This document shows, in pieces, positions 1 through 57,132 of a stretch of 64,000 nucleotides of DNA. The stretch covers positions 1,664,001 to 1,728,000 of the forward strand of contig OZ242186.1 of assembly GCA_965205675.1 (NCBI GenBank), read 5' to 3'. The notes under the pieces were generated by a model. That model was not told the origin of the DNA. It saw only the letters and a program-made list of their open reading frames with translations, and made no database searches. This DNA is from Nitrosopumilus sp. Lineage in GTDB: Archaea; Thermoproteota; Nitrososphaeria; Nitrososphaerales; Nitrosopumilaceae. Numbering within the stretch: position 1 is the first letter of the stretch; each line of letters starts with the position of its first letter. The translations under genes and the position numbers were made by a program.

Positions 1-420
1 TCGCACCAAAGATTTTTGGTTTATGGAATGGTGACAGATGGCAATCAAAGTTTTTTTAGATCGTATGAAAAATTTAATTCAATTGCATTTATGGATTATT
101 TGGAAGCAGCTCGTAGAAAATTTGGAAAAATATTTGTTATCGTCGATAGAGCACCGCAACACAAAGCTAATGATGTAAAAAAATATCTGCGTAAAAACAA
201 AGATGTCAAACTGGCATATCTTCCGAGAGGTTCCCCGCATTTGAGTATGATTGAAGAGGTTTGGAGACAGTGCAAACATGTTAATGTTGAATCAGAATTT
301 TATGAATCTATTCATGAGATGAGGCATACAGTTATGGAATATTTTAGAACGCACAAATTTAATTTGAATATGTATTATTTTGCAAGAACAGTAAATTGAA
401 AAGACTTATGATCTGGGGTA
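1..420 (+). mobile_element. IS630-family transposase, C-terminal DDE part (ORF 16..399; element runs off the window start)
   Basis: IVDRAPQHK and YLPRGSPHLSMIEEVWR motifs; clearly similar to ORF 30492..30941. Confidence 0.8.
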
Positions 421-430
421 TATATGGTAC

Positions 431-646
431 ATGGTAACTATACACTCCGCTCTTTTTTATTTTAGACTAATTTTTGGATTTGTAGGAATTATTATCTTAG
501 GTGTAGGTTCTATATTTTTAGCCTGGCAATTATTTGAAAATCGCTTCTTTGATCTCGATTTGGTTGTGTTGGGGTTATTTATTGCCAACACATCCATACT
601 TTGTGCAATTATTTGGAAATTATTAAAAAAATCCAGAGCAAAATAA
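431..646 (+). CDS. small hypothetical membrane protein (2 TM helices)
   Basis: 71-aa ATG ORF with two hydrophobic stretches and a basic C-terminus. Confidence 0.5.
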   Translation: MVTIHSALFYFRLIFGFVGIIILGVGSIFLAWQLFENRFFDLDLVVLGLFIANTSILCAIIWKLLKKSRAK

Positions 647-868
647 ATATGACATTATGATATTATTTACATCCATCACAAAGTTAAGGATATTTTAAAA
701 AATTAACCTTTGTTTATGCGATCATCATCATTTCTAAAATCTTTATAAAATATTCAGTACTTGGGAAAGTAACTACCTGACATCTTCCAAATAGTATTGG
801 GATTTTATTCCACTAAAGAAATCAATGATGACAATCTCAAAGATGCACTTGAGAATTTCAATTGTAAT

Positions 869-1080
869 TATCCATGTGAATTGTTTTTATACATTTCCTC
901 TCTTTCTATACATCAGGGCATGGCTTTCGCTAGAGAATGGTTTCAATCAAAAGATGGCAGACATGTATCCATACGAGACTATTCTCTCAATGCTATCTTC
1001 ATCCTAGTTAGGATTGTTCGCAGTTATTAGACGAGGCCTTGTCCCTCAATAATTACAACGCGACTTGCAGTCCTAACTAT
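869..1080 (-). ncRNA. putative bridge/seek RNA in the 3' non-coding end of IS110 element 1
   Basis: Nested stems TAGTTAGGA/TCCTAACTA, TCGC/GCGA and GAGG/CCTC around an internal loop; scaffold conserved in two other copies; loop matches the insertion flank. Confidence 0.65.
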
Positions 1081-2187
1081 AATTTTGTACAAATTCTCTC
1101 CTCTCCTTTAACATCCAATAAATCACCCTCAGGATCTTTGATGCACCAGCTACTGCAGCTTTGGATGATCCTCTTTTCTTTTTAATGCGATTGTAAAATT
1201 TTGTAATGTCACTATCCTTGGCATGAATTGCATGAGTGTGTATGCATTCTGTTAGAACCCATCTCAATGTCATGCTTCCCCTTTTTGTTATTCTGCCATG
1301 GTGTATTGTATCTGCAGAGTTTCTAACTGATGGTACAACTCCTGCATATGCACACAGTTTGTGGGAATCATTGAATCTCTCAATATCTGCAATCTCTGAT
1401 GCAATGACAAGCGAAGAATAATGCCCAATTCCCGGAATCGAGTTTATCAAAATTGCATCAGGATTAACTTTTACAGCAGCATACACTTTGGAATTAATCT
1501 CTGCAATCTGTAAATTAAGGTGGCTGATTTGTTGCAAGAATCCGTCTATTCTGTAATCTCCTAGTGCCTTGAGTCTTCTGTTGTATGTTTCAGTGAATGT
1601 AACTCCTGGAATCCTGATTCCTTCCTGTAACAATATTCCATGAACTGAATTCTTGACAGATGTTCTCCATTGGATTAGTTTTTTCCTATATCTTACAAGC
1701 TGTCTTTGTTGTACAATCTTTTTGTCTGGAACATAACATGTGGCAATGTATCCTCCTCGTAAAAGATCTGCCAATATCTTGGCATCAATCTTGTCTGTTT
1801 TCTTTTTTGATGTAGCAATTGCCTTTGTCAAATATGGGTTTGAGAGTGTGACGTTTTTGTATCCCAAAGTATCTGTGAGAAATCGATACGTGTCATACCA
1901 GACTGATGAGGATTCCATTACAATATTTGCAGAAATTGGTATTTTTGCAAAATGCTTTTTTATGGATTCATGCGTGTTATCCACTTTGTCGTTTTGTAAT
2001 ACTTTGCCTGCATCATCCATTTATTACTTGAAGAAACTTCTTGTGCAGGTCAATGCCCACAAACATGCCTTTCTTTGGATTTTTTCTAATCTGTTTGTTT
2101 GTAATCTTTTTTGGAGCCGAGTATTTACGAACCTTGGAACTAGATTCATTTTTTATGCTATCTGATTTCCTTGCTTTCTTATTCACA

Positions 2188-2421
2188 TATCCATGTGAAT
2201 CCCTTTTAACTATTGTCGGTATTTTTGCCATATTAATTACAGCTTACGCTAATACACTCATACTTTCAATCACAGATGAAACCAGACACATATCCATTCG
2301 GGGTTCTCCCCCAGTACCATCTTCATCCATTTATTAGGTGAAACCGCGGTTATAGTTTCGAGGTATTATGCATCCTCAATGTGAAAACGCGGCCAAACTC
2401 CTAACTGTAATGTTTTACAAA
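2188..2421 (-). ncRNA. putative bridge/seek RNA of IS110 element 2
   Basis: Same stem scaffold (CCGCG/CGCGG, GAGG/CCTC) as 869..1080 with different loop sequences that match this element's own junctions. Confidence 0.65.
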
Positions 2422-3518
2422 TTATTGATGACATTGAATAAATTCTCTCCTCTCTTTTAGCATCCAATAAATGACACGCAATAACTTTGATGCAGCAGCA
2501 ACTGCTGCCTTTGAGGTCCCTCTCTTTTTCTTAATGCGATTATAAAATTTTGTAATGTCGCTATCTGGTGCGTATCTAACATGTGCATGAATTGCCTCCA
2601 CTAGCAACCATCTTAGCATGGTGCTTCCTCTCTTTGTAATTCTTCCGTGATGTATTGTATCTGCAGAATTTCTCACCGATGGAACAATCCCTGCATATGC
2701 ACATAACTTGTGAGAATTTGAAAATCTACTAATCTCTGCAATTTCTGAGAATATGCTCAATGCAGTGTATGGTCCAACTCCAGGTATTGATGTCAAAATA
2801 CACACATCAGGATTATCATTTACCATGCGACGTATCATGGAATCTATCTTTGCAACCTCCTTTTTGTGAAATTTTATGCTTTGTAGGTACGAATCTATTC
2901 TATAACTCTCCAATTTTCCAAGTGCACGTATGTGTTCTGAGGAAAATGGTGTTGCTTTGATATGGATTCCCTCCTGTAGTGTAATACCATGTATGGAATT
3001 CTTCATCTTTACAATGATGCGCACAATCTTGTGTCGATGTCTTACAAGCTGTCTGTATTGCACAATTGTGTGATCTGGCACAAATGATTCTGCAATGTAT
3101 CCCTCCTCGTAGCAAATTTGCAAGATGGTACGCATCAATTTTATCAGTCTTTTTGAGTGATGATGCTATTATCTTTGTGTTGTATGGATTAGATAGTATA
3201 ACATCAAGATGTAATTTGTCTGTCATGTGTCTATAAAGGCCATACCAGACAGATGATGACTCTAAAACATATTTTGCGTTCTTTGGAATTTTGGATGTAA
3301 TTTTGCTAATAGCAGAAAAATCACTGGAAATCTTTTTGTTAAATAATAATTTGCCAATCTCATCTACTGCTGCCACCTGTACAGAGTTCTTGTGAACATC
3401 CAATCCTACAAACATCAAATATTTTTTTTCAGGAAGGGTAGTGTGTTTGTTTGCATTTCTTACTTTCTTGATACGAATGCAAGTACCATCTAATTTCCTA
3501 GCTGATTTTGGCACATAT
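2188..3518 (-). mobile_element. IS110/IS1111-family element 2 (transposase 2422..3514, +1 frameshift near 3100)
   Basis: MFVGLDVHK, KTDKIDA, IPGVG and RNSA motifs; right end TATCCATGTGAAT is the same as in element 1, with the same 54-nt spacing to a GCTTWCGCTA block. Confidence 0.85.
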
Positions 3519-4768
3519 GGTTATAGTTATTGGATTTGTGTGATTAATAGAACAAATATTTCCCAACGTACAATTTGCAATAATCCATGTGTTAAACAAA
3601 ATCAAAGGATAGAAAAAATACAAAAACAGGACAGTCGGATTGACACTGCATGTCCTTGGTCTGAATTTACCAACACATGCATAACCTGTCTCTATTCCCA
3701 CCTTCTGCGATACTGGTCCTAGATTTGCCAAATGTTTTTTGATATCTCTGCGCTTTTGATATTTGTTGCAAAAACCAGATACTGGTCTGTGGGATTTGAT
3801 TTTGTAGGTTTTGGATTTGGCAAGATAACTAGATTAAATGATTCAACATGACCAGACCCTGAATGAATCCTGTACTCAGATATTGATTTACGGTTCCCCT
3901 CAACATATTGTATTATTGCCTTTTTGATTTCAGGTGTCTTTCTTGCCGGCATGATGAAATGTGTGTTGGTTTTGCTTTAGTTCATGAATTGTTCCAGTTG
4001 AGAAAAACTCTCTATCCAACAGAACTTGTTTTGTTGCAATGTTGTTTCTGGTGACATCGCCAAATAATTTACGCACGATATCTGCTTTAGAGTTGTTTTT
4101 TCTAATTGGTACACGCCAATTTGTGCCCTACATGATTTCTCTACACATTGAATTGTTCCATACCCTTCAAACGTATCAGTGCCATTTTTGGGTCTTGATT
4201 TTATCAGATATTGTGAATCTGTTTTGTCATACCTTGGGATAATGTGTTTGTCAATTGCAACAGTTACTGGATGATTCAGCATTCCCAATTTCTTTAGGTG
4301 TGTAATTGTTTGGTCAATTCCATCAGATAATGCAACAATCATTTTCTCTTGTGGTATTTTTGCAATCTGCTTTCTAATCCAAGAGCCTGATGAAATGACA
4401 CATTCAGTCCTTATCTTCAGTTTATTTGCAGTTGATTCAGAATAACAGTTACCAAGACAACATTCCATGATGAAATGATGAATGTCCTCTGAATTGTATA
4501 TGGCATTACTTTTTTGTGAGCAAGAAAACAACAATGTTGTGCACATTATTTTAGCAATATTTGCAAATACTTGAATTGTTGAATTTCTAATGTGTGCAAA
4601 ATCAAAATTATGATTCACATTTGATGGAGCAGCATGCCTCCATCAAGCTTTTTCTATCCAAATTTGTGGCGTTGTTGATCAAATGATTGTTAGTTTGTGA
4701 TCTAAATTGGATTATTTTCCCAAGTACTGGTATAGAATATGGGACAAGATAAAGGCTCAGTTGGGGTA

Positions 4769-4842
4769 TGGGCCCGAAGGGCTTCGATCCCTTGGCTCAC
4801 CGGTTATGAGCCGGTTACTCTACCAAGCTGAGTTACGGGCCC
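4769..4842 (-). tRNA. tRNA with CAU anticodon, most likely tRNA-Ile2 (elongator Met not excluded)
   Basis: Cloverleaf GGGCCCG...CGGGCCC-A, anticodon loop CTCATAA; GGGCCC acceptor typical of archaeal tRNA-Ile and lacks the initiator A1-U72 pair. Confidence 0.85.
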
Positions 4843-4883
4843 TAAAGAAAGGAATTCTTTCTCAAGTATAAAATGTTATGAGA

Positions 4884-5516
4884 TCAACAATATTCTTCGT
4901 AGCAACTATCAAGCAACAAATTTTGTGCTGACATTGATTTATCTGCAATTGCAATCAAGTTACTAGAATCAACAGAAGATTGTTCCAAGATATTTCTCCA
5001 AGACGCTGCATGTCTAATGTCAGCTTCTGTGTGAAGTTTAAAGTATTCTGTAGCTTCATTATTTGTCATTCCATAAAATTCTGCCAAACCGTCAAGTTTT
5101 GTTTGGCTAATTTTTGGGATTTCTTTTTCAAATGCATACATGGCACATGCGCCACCATCAAAAGTATTCATTAGTTGAGTTAGATCATATACAGCTTTTT
5201 GAGTTTTAGCCGTTCCAGCATATGAAGTCAATTCTTCTTCAGGTATTCCAAGCTTACAAGCAAAATTAATCCATGGTTTGATATGATCAGATTCTTCTTG
5301 TTGATTTTCAACTAGTTCACTAGTTACTGTTTCAGGAGATTTTGCAATAATTGGAATCATAAAAGAAGGAACTGCTTTTACAAGTTGAAAGTATTCTTTA
5401 GAATAACCTCCAAGAGATTCCTGAGTTAATTTTCCACCAGACCACATTTGGTAAAATGGATGTTTTAGTAAACTTTTTTCTTCAATCATTTCATCAATTT
5501 TCTGTATTATATTCAT
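4884..5516 (-). CDS. TenA/PqqC/CADD-like heme-oxygenase-fold protein
   Basis: LLKHPFYQMW, EESDH and YFKLHTEADIRH motifs. Confidence 0.8.
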   Translation of the reverse strand: MNIIQKIDEMIEEKSLLKHPFYQMWSGGKLTQESLGGYSKEYFQLVKAVPSFMIPIIAKSPETVTSELVENQQEESDHIKPWINFACKLGIPEEELTSYAGTAKTQKAVYDLTQLMNTFDGGACAMYAFEKEIPKISQTKLDGLAEFYGMTNNEATEYFKLHTEADIRHAASWRNILEQSSVDSSNLIAIADKSMSAQNLLLDSCYEEYC

Positions 5517-5595
5517 GATTCATCTCAAGTATGCCAATAAAAAAATCTTTGTGGTTTACAAAAGATTTTATGGTCATAAAAAATAATTTTCGTGG

Positions 5596-5671
5596 GTTCC
5601 AGTGGTGTAGACCGGTCAAGCATTTTGCCCTTTCAAGGCAAAGATCCCGGGTTCAAATCCCGGCTGGAGCA
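5596..5671 (+). tRNA. tRNA-Glu(UUC)
   Basis: Acceptor GTTCCAG/CTGGAGC, anticodon arm TTGCC-CTTTCAA-GGCAA, T-loop GGTTCAAATCC. Confidence 0.95.
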
Positions 5672-5701
5672 CTAAGATTTATTTACTTATGATAAAGTTT
5701 T

Positions 5702-6568
5702 TTGATCAAGCTCATCTTGGACCGTAAAAATATCGAGATTAATCCTTTACTTGAAACATATGGCAAATATATTCAACGAATCGATCAAGCTTTAGAAAAT
5801 GAACTTGGAATCTATTCTGAATCCGAGTTTATTGAACCTCTAAAATACTCCTTAGAAGGAGGAAAACGAATTAGACCAATTATTTTGAATTTAGCAGCTG
5901 AAAGTGTAGGTAAAATTGATGAAAATATACTTTCAGCTTCATGTGCTGTTGAATTTCTTCATATGGAATCAATTATTCATGATGATATTATCGATGACGA
6001 AATCATGAGAAGACAGAAAGAACCATTTCATATCAAATACGGGTACAACACAAGTGTATTAACAGGAGATTTTGTTTTAGGATTAATTCTTGCAATATCA
6101 TCCAGATTAGATAATGCTAGAATCACAAAAGATCTGGCAACTACGGCAATGCTAATGAGTGAGGGTGAAATGATTGAGGGCAGATTAGAAACAAGTGAAG
6201 ATGTAACATTTGATGATTATCTAAAAGTAATTGAATACAAGACTGCTGTAGCATTTCAAGTTGCAGCTAGAATAGGTGCAATAATTGCAAATGGGACTGA
6301 AGAACAAATTGAAGCATTAACTGAATATGGGAAAAATCTTGGAATTGCATATCAAATAAGAGATGACTTGTTAGATTGGAAAAATGAAGATAAATTATTT
6401 AATCTATTGATAAAGAAAAGTTCTGATCCTAGAGATGTCTTTAACAAGATGGAAGAATTACTAAAAGAGTATTCAGAAAAAGCAAGAACAGGTTTGAGAA
6501 AAATTCCAGACAGTGATGCAAAGATAAATCTGGATAATCTAATTAAATTTACTTTGTTTAAGGCATAA
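5702..6568 (+). CDS. polyprenyl (geranylgeranyl) diphosphate synthase
   Basis: GGKRIRP, IIHDDIIDD (FARM), KT and YQIRDD (SARM) motifs; true start may be slightly downstream. Confidence 0.9.
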   Translation: MIKLILDRKNIEINPLLETYGKYIQRIDQALENELGIYSESEFIEPLKYSLEGGKRIRPIILNLAAESVGKIDENILSASCAVEFLHMESIIHDDIIDDEIMRRQKEPFHIKYGYNTSVLTGDFVLGLILAISSRLDNARITKDLATTAMLMSEGEMIEGRLETSEDVTFDDYLKVIEYKTAVAFQVAARIGAIIANGTEEQIEALTEYGKNLGIAYQIRDDLLDWKNEDKLFNLLIKKSSDPRDVFNKMEELLKEYSEKARTGLRKIPDSDAKINLDNLIKFTLFKA

Positions 6569-8042
6569 GACCTAAACTAATTACTGGAGTTGCAAATTCT
6601 ACAAATTTGAGTAATGGTTCTGGATAAACACCAAATCCTACCAAGAAGATTGTGGAGAAAATCATTACAGCGATGATGGATTTTGGTTCTGTAACTCTCT
6701 TTTCGGTTTCTCCTTCAAAGTACATCTTTCTAGTAATCCAACCATAGTAAGCAAGAGATAGTGCACTGTTAAGAACACCTGCAATTGCCAGCCATGGTGC
6801 CCACCATAAAGCAGAGCTAGCATCTAAAGCACTTCCAAATAACATCAATTTACTCCAGAATCCGGAAAGTGGAGGTACGCCAGCTAGTGCAAAGAGAGTA
6901 ATAACTAGACCCAAAGCAGTGATTGGCATTCGTCTACCCAAACCTTTGAGTTTGTCAATGTGAGTAACTGCAAGAGTGGTAACAATGCCTGCAATTGCAA
7001 TAAATGCGGCACCTTTCATTACGGCGTGATTCATTATTTGATAGAGAGAACCTTGTAAACCTAAAGAACTGTGTGGTGCTACTGCAAGTCCAATCAAAAT
7101 GTATCCTGCATGTGCAATACTAGAATACGCCAACATTCTAGAAATGTTCTTTTGCATAATGGCTGCAACATTTCCAATTGTCATTGTCATTACAGCAATA
7201 ATACCAAGTGCCAATGTCCAATCAAGATTTAGTACAACCATACCAAGAACCACAATTCTAATTGTTGCTGCAAATCCTGCTTTCTTTGTTGCAGCAGCTA
7301 ATAATGCCGTAATTGTAGGTGGTGCTCCCTCATATGTATCAGGCAACCACTGGTGAAAAGGAACAAGTCCCATTTTAAATCCAAATCCTGCAATAAACAT
7401 TCCAACTGAAAGTAATGCAAGAGGTAACAGAGAAGGATCAAGTGTAGAGTATCCTTGAATGACTTCACCGATATTTGTAGAGCCTGTTAATCCATAAGAA
7501 AGTGAAATGCCATAAACGATTATTGCAGAAGATAGTGCACCAAACAAGAAATATTTCAGAGCTGCTTCATTAGAACTTGGATTCCTTTTCATGTAACCAA
7601 CTAAGATGTATGTTGGAATGCTCATGAGTTCCCATGCAACAAATAGCATTATCAAATCAGTAGAATATGCAACAAGAACCATACCGATAGTTGCAAGTAA
7701 AATCAGTGAATAGTAAACAGCAGGAGAATTATGCTTTCTCATATAATTGAAAGAGCCAACAGTTGTGAAAACGGCTACAATTAGCATTGCAATAGCAAAA
7801 AAGCCACCAAATGCATCATCTACAATTACATCTTCTGAGAATAGAGCAGATGAAGCAATATTATTAGCATAGAACTGATATCCAACATATCCCATAGATA
7901 CGATTAATGCTGCAAATGCAATTATAGCATAAAATGAATTAGAGCCTTGTTCTTTTCTTGCAATACTGATTATTGGAAGAAGTATTCCAACAGTACCCAA
8001 GATAGCAATTATGATTAATGGAGTAGAGGTAATTTCTAACAT
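6558..8042 (-). CDS. nuoN: complex I subunit N
   Basis: EAALKYF and FKMGLVPFHQWLPDTYEGAP; last gene of the operon. Confidence 0.95.
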   Translation of the reverse strand: MLEITSTPLIIIAILGTVGILLPIISIARKEQGSNSFYAIIAFAALIVSMGYVGYQFYANNIASSALFSEDVIVDDAFGGFFAIAMLIVAVFTTVGSFNYMRKHNSPAVYYSLILLATIGMVLVAYSTDLIMLFVAWELMSIPTYILVGYMKRNPSSNEAALKYFLFGALSSAIIVYGISLSYGLTGSTNIGEVIQGYSTLDPSLLPLALLSVGMFIAGFGFKMGLVPFHQWLPDTYEGAPPTITALLAAATKKAGFAATIRIVVLGMVVLNLDWTLALGIIAVMTMTIGNVAAIMQKNISRMLAYSSIAHAGYILIGLAVAPHSSLGLQGSLYQIMNHAVMKGAAFIAIAGIVTTLAVTHIDKLKGLGRRMPITALGLVITLFALAGVPPLSGFWSKLMLFGSALDASSALWWAPWLAIAGVLNSALSLAYYGWITRKMYFEGETEKRVTEPKSIIAVMIFSTIFLVGFGVYPEPLLKFVEFATPVISLGLMP

Positions 8043-42989: not shown

Positions 42990-44040
42990 ATGGACTCTAA
43001 ACCGTGCAAAAACTGTGATGATTTGGCAAGAAAAAATATAGAATTGGAAATCAAAATCAAGCAGCTAGAATCAAAATTATCCTACTATGATAACCCAAAC
43101 TCTCCGCCATCATCTGATTCTCTCCATTGGAGGAAACAAAAGAAGCAGTCTTGATATCATACCGTCAACTCTTAGTAATTGGTTAAACCAAATGAACCGA
43201 AAGGGAATATCTGCATCACGCCGTAAGAAATATTCTGGTTCTAGATGTTTCTTAAATAAAAAAACAACTAGTGTCATTAAGAGAGGATCTAATTTCAGGT
43301 CCAGAAAAGTTTGGATTCAATCAATTCATGTGGAGTACAAGAATGGTAATTACACATGTGAATAAAAAATACAACACGCTATACTCTGCAAGAGGAATGC
43401 GTGAATTACTACGCCGAATTGGATTCTCATCTAAAAAACTAAGACCGACTCAATCACAAATCAGCCTCAAAAGAGGAGCAGAATCGTTTTAAAAAAACGC
43501 AAAAAGGACAGTTAACAAATATTCCAAATTGGGATACACCACACTATGTCTGGATGAGTCAACAAGTAAAGTAGCACCCAACATAAAGCGCGGATGGTAT
43601 CTTGCAGGCAATAACATCACCACACCAATTAATTACACTCGAGAAAAATTTCAATCATTTGGTGCATTGGGCAATAACGGCGTATTTTTTGCAGGTTCTA
43701 TGATAAATCAAACACAGACTCATTTCTGGATTTTTTAGAGTCACTACAAAAACAATTTGGTAAGAAACTGTTACTGTTTGCAGATAATGCATCATACCAC
43801 AAAAGTGTCAGAGTAAAAGAATTTCTCAAAGCATCAAAAAGTAAAGTGAACATTAGATATTTTTCTTGTATACACTCCAGAATTAAACCCCATTGAGATA
43901 CAGTGGAGAGAAGAGAAAAAGGGAAACTGCAAGCCAATTCTTCGTCAATGGCTCTGAAATGAGAAAACATATGCAGAAGAGACTAGATAGTGGAGTGATT
44001 CAAGTTGTTAAAGTGTTCAGATATTTAATGCCTTAACTAG
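42990..44040 (+). pseudogene. decayed IS630 transposase preceded by an IS66-type N-terminal fragment
   Basis: MDSKPCKNC...YDNPNSPPSSD (IS66-like), followed by multi-frameshifted IS630 motifs (CLDES, ADNASYHK, TPELNPIE). Confidence 0.75.
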
Positions 44041-56439: not shown

Positions 56440-57132
56440 TATCCATGTGAATTGTTTTTATACATTTTCTCTATTTCTAAACATTAGGGCATAGCTTTCG
56501 CTAAAGAAGAATTACAATCAAAAGATGCGGACATGTATCCATACGAGACTATTCTCTCAATGCTATCTTCATCCTAGTTAGGATTATTCGCAGTTATCAG
56601 ACGAGGCTTGTCCCTCATAAATTCTAACGCGACTTGCAGTCCTAACTATAATGTTCCACAAATTCTCCCCTCTCCTTTAACATCCAATAAATCCCCCTCA
56701 GAATTTTTGATGCGCCAGCTACTGCAGCTTTGGATGAACCTCTTTTCTTTTTAATGCTATTGTAAAATTTTGTAATGCCGCTATGGCAGTATAACAAAAC
56801 GAGGAAGCATGACACTGCGATGGGTTCTAACAGAATGTGTTCACACCCATGCAATACATGCCAAGAATGGTGTATTATATCTGCAGAATTTCTAACGGAT
56901 GGAACAACACCTGCATATGCACATAATTTGTGGGAATCGTTGAATCTTTCAATATCTGCAATTTCTGATGCAATAACAAGCGAAGAATAATGCCCAATTC
57001 CTAGAATCGAGTTTATTAAAATTGCATCTGGGTTGCACTTTACAGTAGCATACACTTTGGAATTAATCTCTGCAATTTGCAGATTAAGATGGTTAATCTG
57101 TTGTAGAAATCCGTCTATTCTGTAATCTCCTA
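56440..57132 (-). mobile_element. truncated IS110 element 3 (close relative of element 1) retaining its 3' non-coding/bridge-RNA end (56440..56650)
   Basis: High nucleotide similarity to 869..1562; internal 82-bp inversion. Confidence 0.85.

Follow-up and report, generated by a model that had tools for sequence, protein, structure and literature searches.

In a stretch of 64,000 nucleotides from a Nitrosopumilus sp. genome (contig OZ242186.1, G000:C1:1664001-1728000; hereafter the window, with G000 denoting this genome), three insertion sequences (IS) are nested one inside another, which raises the question of whether the innermost, an IS110-family element, met the end of a second IS110-family element by chance or was guided to it. 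The layers are an outer ISH3-like IS (755..4729), an IS110-family element that interrupts it (element A, body 872..2188) and a further IS110-family element that interrupts A close to its left end (element B, 2191..3522, 1332 bp); the transposase genes of all three lie on the minus strand, which is taken as the sense strand throughout and carries the features located below unless stated otherwise. The best explanation overall, in which we place considerable confidence, is that B is an IS1111-type IS110 element with an RNA programmed against the left ends of its sister elements. This explanation draws on the anatomy of the elements, on an exclusive insertion context, on guide/target matches with cognate controls and on recurrence in other genomes, and from these we infer that the RNA is expressed and directs insertion.

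The nest had been proposed in an earlier interpretation made from the letters of this locus only (the sequence-only reading), in which A and B were elements 1 and 2, and its three layers are borne out: empty ISH3-like sites and five solo copies of A define all of the joints. As that reading claimed, the outer transposase is rejoined in frame inside its terminal inverted repeats (TIRs) when 869..3527 is removed. Excision of these 2659 bp (equivalently, 872..3530) brings back the frame ...NHTNPIITIEILKCIFE...EDVR* within a perfect 14-bp TIR and regenerates CAATTGTAATTATTGGATTTG, which occurs uninterrupted in two paralogous ISH3-like copies in the same genome. The empty joint 867>3527 (2659 skipped) is also present in contigs of runs X3 and X5, which differ from the window at 9-18 other letters and thus represent paralogs or other strains.

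The genes of A and B are arranged head to tail, and the open reading frame (ORF) pieces of both match Pfam PF01548 and PF02371. Against the model NF033542 ('IS110 family RNA-guided transposase', cutoff 140), intact A scores 228.8 bits, a third IS110 lineage in the genome (C) scores 250.5, and the two ORF pieces of B score 60.6 and 172.9 bits. By these matches, A and B are predicted to encode IS110-family transposases, in which a DEDD/RuvC-like domain (PF01548) forms the N-terminal part and PF02371 the C-terminal part. A and B are approximately 60% identical in amino-acid sequence over residues 130-371 and approximately 49% over residues 1-147 (tblastn); the protein of C, which has the left end AACCATATGTGAATAAAC and the right end CACATAG, is 58% identical to that of A.

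Ten full copies of A in the genome, five solo and five carrying B, fix its ends. The left subterminal repeat, ATGTGAAT (2188-2181), includes the GTG start codon (2186-2184), and the right end, ...AATTCACATGG, stops at 872; the ORF is split over two frames in the assembly (2013-2186 and 1073-2020), with an intact ORF of 371 aa in two solo copies. The outermost four nucleotides of A (3525..3528, sense AACT) are separated from its body by B. Eight full copies plus fragments delimit B, which begins in sense with AACCATATGTGCC..., starts translation at a GTG (3514-3512) and ends in ...GGGATTCACATGG; its ORF pieces (2900-3514 and 2422-3138) are offset by a surplus G in the run 3101-3103. Comparison of filled with empty sites and solo copies shows one copy of a core dinucleotide, AT in sense, per empty site; in the window the core stands at the B right joint (2189..2190) and has sister copies at the B left joint (3523-3524), the A right joint (870-871) and the A left joint (3529-3530). 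Read in sense from its left end, the composite is CCA-AT-AACT-AT-, followed by B from AACCATATGTGCC to GGGATTCACATGG (3522..2191), then -AT-ATGTGAATAAG, the body of A to ...AATTCACATGG (ending at 872) and -AT-AATTACAA. The right half of the B target within A (2181..2190) consists of the core AT plus ATGTGAAT, that is, the subterminal inverted repeat of A. All five solo copies of A read xxxA-AT-AACTATATGTGAATAAG ... AATTCACATGG-AT-AATTA(C/T)A, with AACT-AT-ATGTGAATAAG at the left end, and the flanks at nine sites of A or of A with B inside it (A::B) are xxxA-AT-AATTA(C/T)A. Insertion of A and of B is site- and orientation-specific, with no target duplication beyond the shared core.

These copies displace the A/B border of the sequence-only reading by 6 nt. 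The restored left end of A that it gave, ATAACTATAACCATATGTGAATAAG, is absent, since the five solo copies read (AT)AACTATATGTGAATAAG in its place and AACCAT is the left end of B itself. The same reading had staked its proposal on intact copies of A beginning with ATAACTATAACC; they do not, so that this detail falls, while the corrected border strengthens the central idea that B is aimed at the terminus of a sister element.

In both elements the transposase gene is followed by a long non-coding region and preceded by a very short one, as in the IS1111 arrangement: A has approximately 200 nt from its stop codon (1073-1075) to 872, its right end, with 8 nt ahead of the GTG, and B has approximately 230 nt downstream of the gene (2191-2421), likewise with 8 nt ahead of the GTG. 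A long downstream non-coding region characterizes the IS1111 group (PMC11187229; PMC11208160; here and below these are cited from the portions of their text that were available), as do subterminal inverted repeats, usually of 11-13 bp, with extensions of approximately 7 bp on the left and 3 bp on the right (available part of PMC11187229). The subterminal repeats of A, ATGTGAAT and ATTCACAT, are perfect at 8 bp, short by comparison with the IS1111 norm; the extensions, TAACTAT (7) and GGA (3) if one copy of the core is counted to the IS, are spaced as in IS1111. In B the left subterminal repeat is imperfect (ATGTGCC).

The insertion context of B is the same wherever it is found in the genome. 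Its right end adjoins AT-ATGTGAATAA in nine of nine cases (the host is of type A in eight and of type C in the ninth), and all 18 B-type left ends, fragments included, follow a 6-nt stub (12 AACTAT, five AACCAT and one degenerate GACTAT); B always has the orientation of its host. Other copies of B, which the sequence-only reading had proposed as the check on its idea, therefore all lie in the left-end context of sister IS110 elements, and the uninterrupted copies it called for exist as five solo A elements and two empty ISH3-like sites. The stub tracks the host: AACT accompanies A hosts, and the copy of B at 954k, in the left end of a C element, has GT-AACC-AT as do solo copies of C. The possibility that AACTAT belongs to the left end of B itself was ruled out, because the stub varies with the host and the ends of solo A and C elements contain it. 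An uninterrupted target of B would read TAACTATATGTGAATAAG, and precise loss of B through one AT would restore AACTATATGTG.

The 10-mer ATGTGAATAA occurs at 48 sites in the genome, 21 of which are IS110 left ends, nine of them with B; at the other 27 sites, elsewhere than in IS110 left ends of the same genome, B was found at none, so that the right half of the target is insufficient by itself. Eighteen of these 27 sites belong to another repeat family, the left half of which reads ...TTACAC. This 18-copy family (window position 43356 and 17 other places), with the sequence ...GGTAATTACAC-ATGTGAATAA-AAAATACAAC, constitutes a natural control of specificity and contains B in 0 of 18 copies.

The non-coding regions suggest how such a context could be recognized. 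In A, B, C and related elements, the stop codon is followed by 200-230 nt that do not code for protein, and the GTG is preceded by 8 nt. The downstream region folds as two domains, each of stem, internal loop and hairpin, which are kept in an alignment of ten family members, with compensatory hairpin changes (UGAGG/CCUCG, GGGG/CCCC and UGAGGU/ACCUCA; alignment and alifold). In B, the fold, the alignment and the target matches place a putative target-binding domain at 2333..2405, with a 5' loop strand TTTTCACAT (2379-2387; reverse complement ATGTGAAAA) and a 3' loop strand AAACTATAAC (2349-2358), so that the first domain reads GCG-TTTTCACAT-[hairpin]-AAACTATAAC-CGCGG. The corresponding domain of A (1007..1077), placed by its fold and by a 12-nt match to the ISH3-like site, reads GCG-TTGTAATTAT-[hairpin]-TCTAATAAC-TGCG, with its loop strands at 1049-1058 and 1023-1031, and that of C reads TCG-TTAAACATAT-[hairpin]-TTTTGTAAC-TGCGG.

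The loop strands correspond to the two halves of the target. In A, the reverse complement of the 5' strand, AT-AATTACAA, is exactly the core plus the right target, with a 12-nt complement in the ISH3-like site, and the 3' strand, TCTA-AT-AAC, equals the left target, the core and the first three bases of A (a solo copy at 1773k reads TTCTA-AT-AAC). In C, the reverse complement AT-ATGTTTAA matches the flanks ATATGTTGGG, ATATGTGTTTAA and ATATATGTTTT. In B, the left joint (T)AACT-AT-AAC(C) is matched by the 3' strand, AAACT-AT-AAC, which is made up of the top-strand left target, the core and the first three bases of B. The right target, ATGTGAATA, is matched by the 5' strand, read as its reverse complement ATGTGAAAA; the whole target is AACT-AT-ATGTGAA. 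The matches of the two B strands are of 7 nt each in a raw k-mer scan; by eye, 9 contiguous nt are matched at the left joint, AACTATAAC. The observation of the sequence-only reading that both guide-like strands of B match the left end of A thus holds for the corrected left end, AACT-AT-ATGTGAATAA.

Sister elements provide controls, in that the same loop positions of A, C, E, K and the C-type element at L027 match their own, different flanks. Cognate guide/flank matches in nine elements measure 8, 7, 8, 7, 4, 3, 4, 7 and 4 nt (the longest, 8, 7, 8, 7 and 7 nt, being those of A, B, C, E and K), with a mean of 5.8 for cognate against 3.8 for non-cognate pairs, and the observed sum was reached in 1 of 20000 permutations. 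The second domain (2272..2328 in B; 950..1004 in A) resembles a donor-binding loop: its 3' strand is AATGG-AT in B, equal to the right end ...CATGG plus the core, and TATGG-AT-A in A. This loop covaries with the right end, being ATGG-AT in A and B (right end CATGG) and ATAG-AT in C and in the B copies of a metagenome-assembled genome (MAG) considered below (CATAG); more fully, C and the B copies at L020, L021 and L032 have the right end CACATAG and the loop AATAG-AT. Because of this covariation, the second domain is probably the donor-binding loop for the right end. Loop strands that match both strands of the target, together with a second loop that matches the element's own end, are the hallmark of a bridge or seek RNA, and the predicted domains of B have both. 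In IS1111 seekRNAs, the strand that complements the top strand comes first, 5' of the one that complements the bottom strand, with an overlap at the crossover (Siddiquee et al., in the available part of PMC11187229); the strand order of A, B and C agrees with this, and the strand logic is that of the left and right target guides (LTG/RTG) of IS621, as far as PMC11208160 is available.

Two further observations concern these RNA domains. A direct repeat of 9-10 nt has one copy 31-35 nt from the left end, in the 5' coding region, and the other 125-133 nt from the right end, in the second domain (5' strand); in B it occupies window positions 3481-3490 (at about +32 from the left end) and 2309-2318 (the 5' strand of the donor loop). 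A-type elements have it as AGATAGCAT, B- and C-type elements as AGATGGTACT or ATGGTACTG; it covaries between lineages and is present in six of seven elements (A, C, K and L027 also among them), and it is equalled by 2-30 of 200 shuffles of single elements. An incomplete IS110 copy, A2 (window 56440-57132), is 84% identical to A over 704 nt and has the target loop TTAGAATTTA / TCTGATAAC and the right-end flank AT-AAATCATG.

On the favoured explanation, the target loop of the bridge or seek RNA of B would be set against the first 17 or so nucleotides of sister IS110 elements, AAC(T/C) plus the core AT plus ATGTGAATAA, the last of which is the subterminal repeat and contains the start codon (GTG) of the host. 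Recombination at the common AT would set B four nucleotides plus the core inside the host left end, 2 nt upstream of the host start codon and in host orientation, giving AACT-AT-[B]-AT-ATGTG.... In the window, B would have entered a copy of A, A::B would then have transposed by means of the RNA encoded at the right end of A (target xxxA-AT-AATTACA), and one A::B copy would have landed in the ISH3-like IS to give three layers.

The alternative that survives best, and that we nevertheless consider unlikely, is a 'half-match' capture directed by the protein or by the donor loop, in which the subterminal repeat is recognized as if it were a donor end. The right target of B, ATGTGAAT, is indeed the subterminal inverted repeat of the family, its complement ATTCACAT lies in the right end of B itself, and half-match recombination on donor arms has been reported for IS621 (available part of bioRxiv 10.64898/2026.08.31.748434). 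However, B is inserted 6 nt inside the host end and not at the host junction core; its first loop departs from those of A and C at precisely the positions that fit the new target, and its donor-type loop continues to match its right end; all 27 ATGTGAATAA sites that are devoid of an AAC(T/C)AT left half are unoccupied; and solo copies of A (five) and C (four) share the repeats, yet none is in the left end of a sister IS.

Recurrence in other genomes speaks for RNA programming of B as well. The 18-nt joint of right end, AT and left end, TTCACATRGATATGTGAA, was scanned over 185,579 species genomes and found at 16 loci, five of them in two Nitrosopumilus MAGs. Ten of the 11 loci outside Nitrosopumilus are not accompanied by an IS110 coding sequence and one (L028) has a weak match of 24%; by our estimate a few tens of chance matches are expected, which places the non-Nitrosopumilus loci at chance level. 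In MAG CBDBGZ01 (L020, L021 and L032), elements 98-99% identical to B over positions 1-1249 are found in A-type left ends after the stubs AACC-AT (L020), AACC-AT (L021) and AACT-AT (L032). In OZ250170.1 (L027), a relative with 88% identity to B occupies a C-type left end, and its guide, TATTCACAT, is a perfect 9/9 complement of ATGTGAATA. Thus, the B-type elements of these MAGs that have the same target loop lie in A-type or C-type left ends, and the proposal that B targets the terminus of a sister IS110 held for each copy examined, in A and C hosts and in two further MAGs. Metagenome scans with a 21-mer of the joint and with the target-loop signature of B gave 0 matches each, to which little weight attaches because repeats rarely assemble. 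Two loose ends of assembled contigs belong here: in run X5, at window position 2199, an A-type left end adjoins a C-like right end in contigs of another organism, and in run X6, at 2187, a B-like right end adjoins AT-AT-ACTGAATATTATG in a further organism, the latter sequence possibly being the left end of another relative.

The five copies of A that carry B share the states of variable columns 106, 109, 112, 229, 234 and 235 (5/5) and of 232 (4/5), and these states were found in none of the five solo copies of A across the seven columns; independent insertions of B would produce a perfect 5/5 split with a chance of 1 in 252. Gene conversion from B was ruled out as the origin of these single-nucleotide polymorphisms (SNPs), because their states differ from those of B. 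The composites occupy at least three distinct A-type sites, CCA-AT-AATTACAA, GGGA-AT-AATTACAG and ACTA-AT-AATTATAG, the flanks of which fit the guide of A. On the simplest reading, A::B appears to have moved as a unit under the guide of A after one insertion of B, in agreement with the 'hitch-hiking' anticipated by the sequence-only reading. Transposition as a unit would imply that the machinery of A accepted AACTATA followed by ACC... in place of AACTATA followed by TGTG..., in which the first 7 nt alone are in common. B also moved alone, as follows from its copy in a C host at 954k, which differs from the B of the window at 3 of 1331 columns. In the composite at 440k (G000:C1:441799-444227), approximately 1.1 kb of other DNA lies inside B after position 903, making at least four layers.

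The same SNP lineage is what an account with no targeting would invoke, namely that A and B met once and that the resulting pair later multiplied through composite transposition, segmental duplication and homologous recombination; the composites at 927k and 440k share both flanks, and that at 999k shares one. We judge this account very improbable, because B also lies at 954k in the left end of a C-type element, where the stub is of type C, and in diverged, truncated A-like ends at 62k, 39k and 570k (94.2, 94.4 and 97.3% identical to A) with differing SNPs in B, because the MAG hosts have different stubs and flanks, and because common descent leaves the guide match unaccounted for. That repeats were mis-joined in this repeat-rich single-contig assembly is scarcely credible: assembly indels do recur in these repeats and are absent from read-derived contigs, but the same junction stands at nine places that differ in their outer flanks, it recurs in two MAGs that were assembled independently, and the stubs and cores are exactly those that recombination chemistry predicts.

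Several observations nevertheless weigh against RNA programming of B, or against its strictest form. The 5' strand of B is 2 nt out of register relative to A and C, pairing right after the core and leaving the core uncovered, and position 8 of this strand is mismatched to the target (A versus T). The C-type element at L027 shares the register of B (loop TCAGACAACT, flank AT followed by AGTTGTCTG), and K and L_G018 are intermediate or approximate; the register of the guide therefore seems flexible in these archaeal IS110 elements, which weakens a strictly IS621-like interpretation. Cognate matches are poor (3-4 nt) in four of the nine elements, the older A2, G, I and L. A donor guide for the left end, complementary to AT-AAC(T/C)ATATG, gave ambiguous matches only, in the basal stem of the first domain. 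Assignment of the core as AT suits K, whereas C and L_G018 fit TA, T alone being common to all joints. A search of window positions 1-7000 against Rfam with an E-value threshold returned two tRNAs and two chance matches, with no IS110 non-coding family among them. The support for RNA guidance of B consists of sequence logic and a predicted fold, and the mobility of the composite is read from a partition of SNPs rather than from circles. Outside G000, B was not found in 24 other genomes of the genus (1/25 with G000 included), and its wider distribution rests on two MAGs; among 41 genomes including G000, B was found in G000 only, and distant IS110 matches only in G015 and G018. Finally, double or triple stubs (AACTAT-AACCAT-, AACCAT-AACCAT-) precede B-type left ends at G000:C1:62332-63662, 566144-567242 and 1407691-1407833. 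These three loci need extra events, such as insertion of B into an end of B or AACC type with subsequent collapse; the stubs are probably the footprints left when nests inside other nests were reduced by homologous recombination.

Some elements combine parts of guest and host. E_754k (G000:C1:754380-755689) has the left end and gene of B with an A-like target loop and right end, and its site, GGTCTA-AT-AATTTCAG, matches the A-like loop; the B copies L020, L021 and L032 of MAG CBDBGZ01 have a C-type donor guide and right end. By their sequences, both look like recombinants of guest and host formed within a nest.

The frameshifts in A and B need not mean loss of function. The surplus G in B (GGG for GG) is present in eight of eight full copies, and eight of the ten copies of A are 2 bp short in the assembly. 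Contigs of run X1 match the unique flank 600-780 with 0 differences, indicating the same or a near-identical strain; in these, all of the depth (1919.6 of 1919.6) has one base fewer at 3101, and at 2020/2024 all of the depth (275.8 + 212.9 of 488.7) has two bases more, one version restoring QVIIMDD. The B copies of the MAGs read GGAGGATAC, with an intact frame of 365 aa. Non-autonomy of B or A due to frameshifts was accordingly rejected, since the X1 contigs and, for B, the MAG copies are free of the indels; B is probably autonomous, to judge from these sequences, and the indels in repeats are probably systematic consensus errors. For this reason, other frameshifts in repeats of the assembly, including that of the ISH3-like gene, need care.

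The position of the insertion may matter for expression. In A and C, the GTG start lies within the left-end repeat (AACTATAT-GTG AAT AAG); the element leaves no space for a promoter inside it. An A/T-rich octamer is located 12-13 nt from the right ends (A, TATAAAAA, 884-891; B, TTAAAA, 2204-2209; C, TTTTTAAA, from the L015 copies), and only in a joint of right end and left end, counted by hand, would it come to lie 23-30 nt upstream of the GTG. This is the spacing of an archaeal TATA box before a leaderless mRNA. The octamer is thus a candidate junction promoter of archaeal type for a leaderless transposase mRNA. Junction promoters are known in the IS110 family (PMC12288879, available in part). 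In a circle of the composite, the octamer would face the start codon of B and not that of A, and the B/A joint would be 6 nt short in spacing, with a spacer of 4 nt between the B right end and the A left end against 10 nt in a genuine circle joint. B would in this way gain expression and a ride at the cost of A; more generally, it may gain a safe, multi-copy landing site and free transport while severing the host IS from its junction promoter. B may thereby disable its host, in which case the term hyperparasite used in the sequence-only reading would be apt.

Whether this amounts to an evolved lifestyle, in which sister ends serve as a renewable safe harbour, B takes over the promoter and rides with its host, and nests act as a nursery where target and donor loops are shuffled, is a tentative suggestion that we would sooner doubt than assert. 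If it is true, nesting would be a natural route for IS110 elements to new target specificities. Apart from that suggestion, the favoured explanation shows how nests of IS can arise by design rather than by chance and points to nesting as an origin of chimeric guide RNAs. B would represent a natural, multi-copy case of a bridge or seek RNA programmed against RNA-guided IS of its own family in an archaeon, with guide and target both legible in one genome and built-in controls in the form of sister elements that have the same scaffold with other loops and targets. The composites further suggest that mobilization of an element remains possible when a foreign IS lies 6 nt inside its left end, which would bound how much of the left end is needed for donor recognition. 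For annotation, insertion of B into sister ends would account for the recurrent arrays of 'tandem IS110' and the 6-nt AAC(T/C)AT footprints in Nitrosopumilus.

Specific insertion into the end of another mobile element has precedents. IS4321 and IS5075, of the IS1111 group, reportedly target the inverted repeats in transposons of the Tn21 family. Like IS4321, B is of IS1111 type, has subterminal inverted repeats and a non-coding region downstream of the transposase gene, and occupies a fixed position and orientation in the terminal repeat of another mobile element with no target duplication. Unlike IS4321, the target of which is a Tn3-family transposon, B targets the left ends of sister IS110/IS1111 elements, including the repeat and start codon of the host, is found in an archaeon, and has a subterminal repeat of 8 bp only. 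Müller, Lauf and Herrmann are said to have described in 2001 how, in Pseudomonas putida H, IS1383 (IS110 family) integrates into IS1384 at the inverted repeats of the latter. IS1384 belongs to the ISL3 family, which is unrelated to IS110. The specific target of an IS110-family element is again the end of another IS; unlike the pair IS1383/IS1384, B and its hosts are relatives with a common end architecture, which would allow co-mobilization and recombination of RNA modules. RNA guidance of IS110-family elements has been known since 2024. B resembles the seekRNA elements ISEc11, ISKpn4 and ISPa11 and the bridge RNA of IS621 in its IS1111 strand order and in a second loop that matches its own end (available parts of PMC11187229, which mentions a target logo for IS4321, and PMC11208160). 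Unlike those seekRNAs and that bridge RNA, as described there, the register of the 5' guide varies by 0-2 nt in these elements, and B and A are known as sequences. The ISPpu9/ssr9 pair of Pseudomonas putida provides another parallel, in which an IS110-family element is accompanied by a second selfish module that can form circles alone or together with it (PMC12288879, available in part); unlike ssr9, which by that account is a small-RNA gene that lacks a transposase, B is an entire IS, with a transposase gene and a predicted guide RNA of its own. What appears to be new is that, in an archaeon, an element targets the left ends of sisters belonging to its own family, that the guest can ride with its host and that guest and host RNA modules form chimeras. 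The literature that could be covered, which leaves out most subscription journals, contains no description that we found of an IS110/IS1111 element targeting ends of its own family.

The outer IS extends over 755..4729, as judged from its TIRs (755-768 and 4716-4729; 14 bp, perfect: CAGTACTTGGGAAA), the rejoined frame and the ends of paralog alignments, many of which terminate precisely at 755 and 4729. Its transposase is in pieces at 3977-4618, 3719-3952 and 3498-3731, resuming from 868 downwards. Two of its fragments give partial, weak scores of 27.4 and 25.7 bits against the ISH3 model NF033541 (cutoff 225), a 153-aa ORF of a paralog scores 64.1 bits, also under the cutoff, and a Pfam search with the ORF pieces of the outer IS gave no match; 'ISH3-like' is therefore a reasonable label, membership of the family not being proven. 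A target duplication was looked for at the ends of the outer IS and none was seen. Another ISH3-like copy (G000:C1:1157021-1159343) contains a C-type IS110 element in the opposite orientation and at a different position, beside a deletion, and its A-type target site, CAATTGTAATTATTGG, is unoccupied. The outer IS ends 40 nt from the first of two tRNA genes (4769-4842, minus strand; 5596-5671, plus strand), and a 3' fragment of a DDE_3 (IS630-like) transposase gene occupies window positions 1-399.

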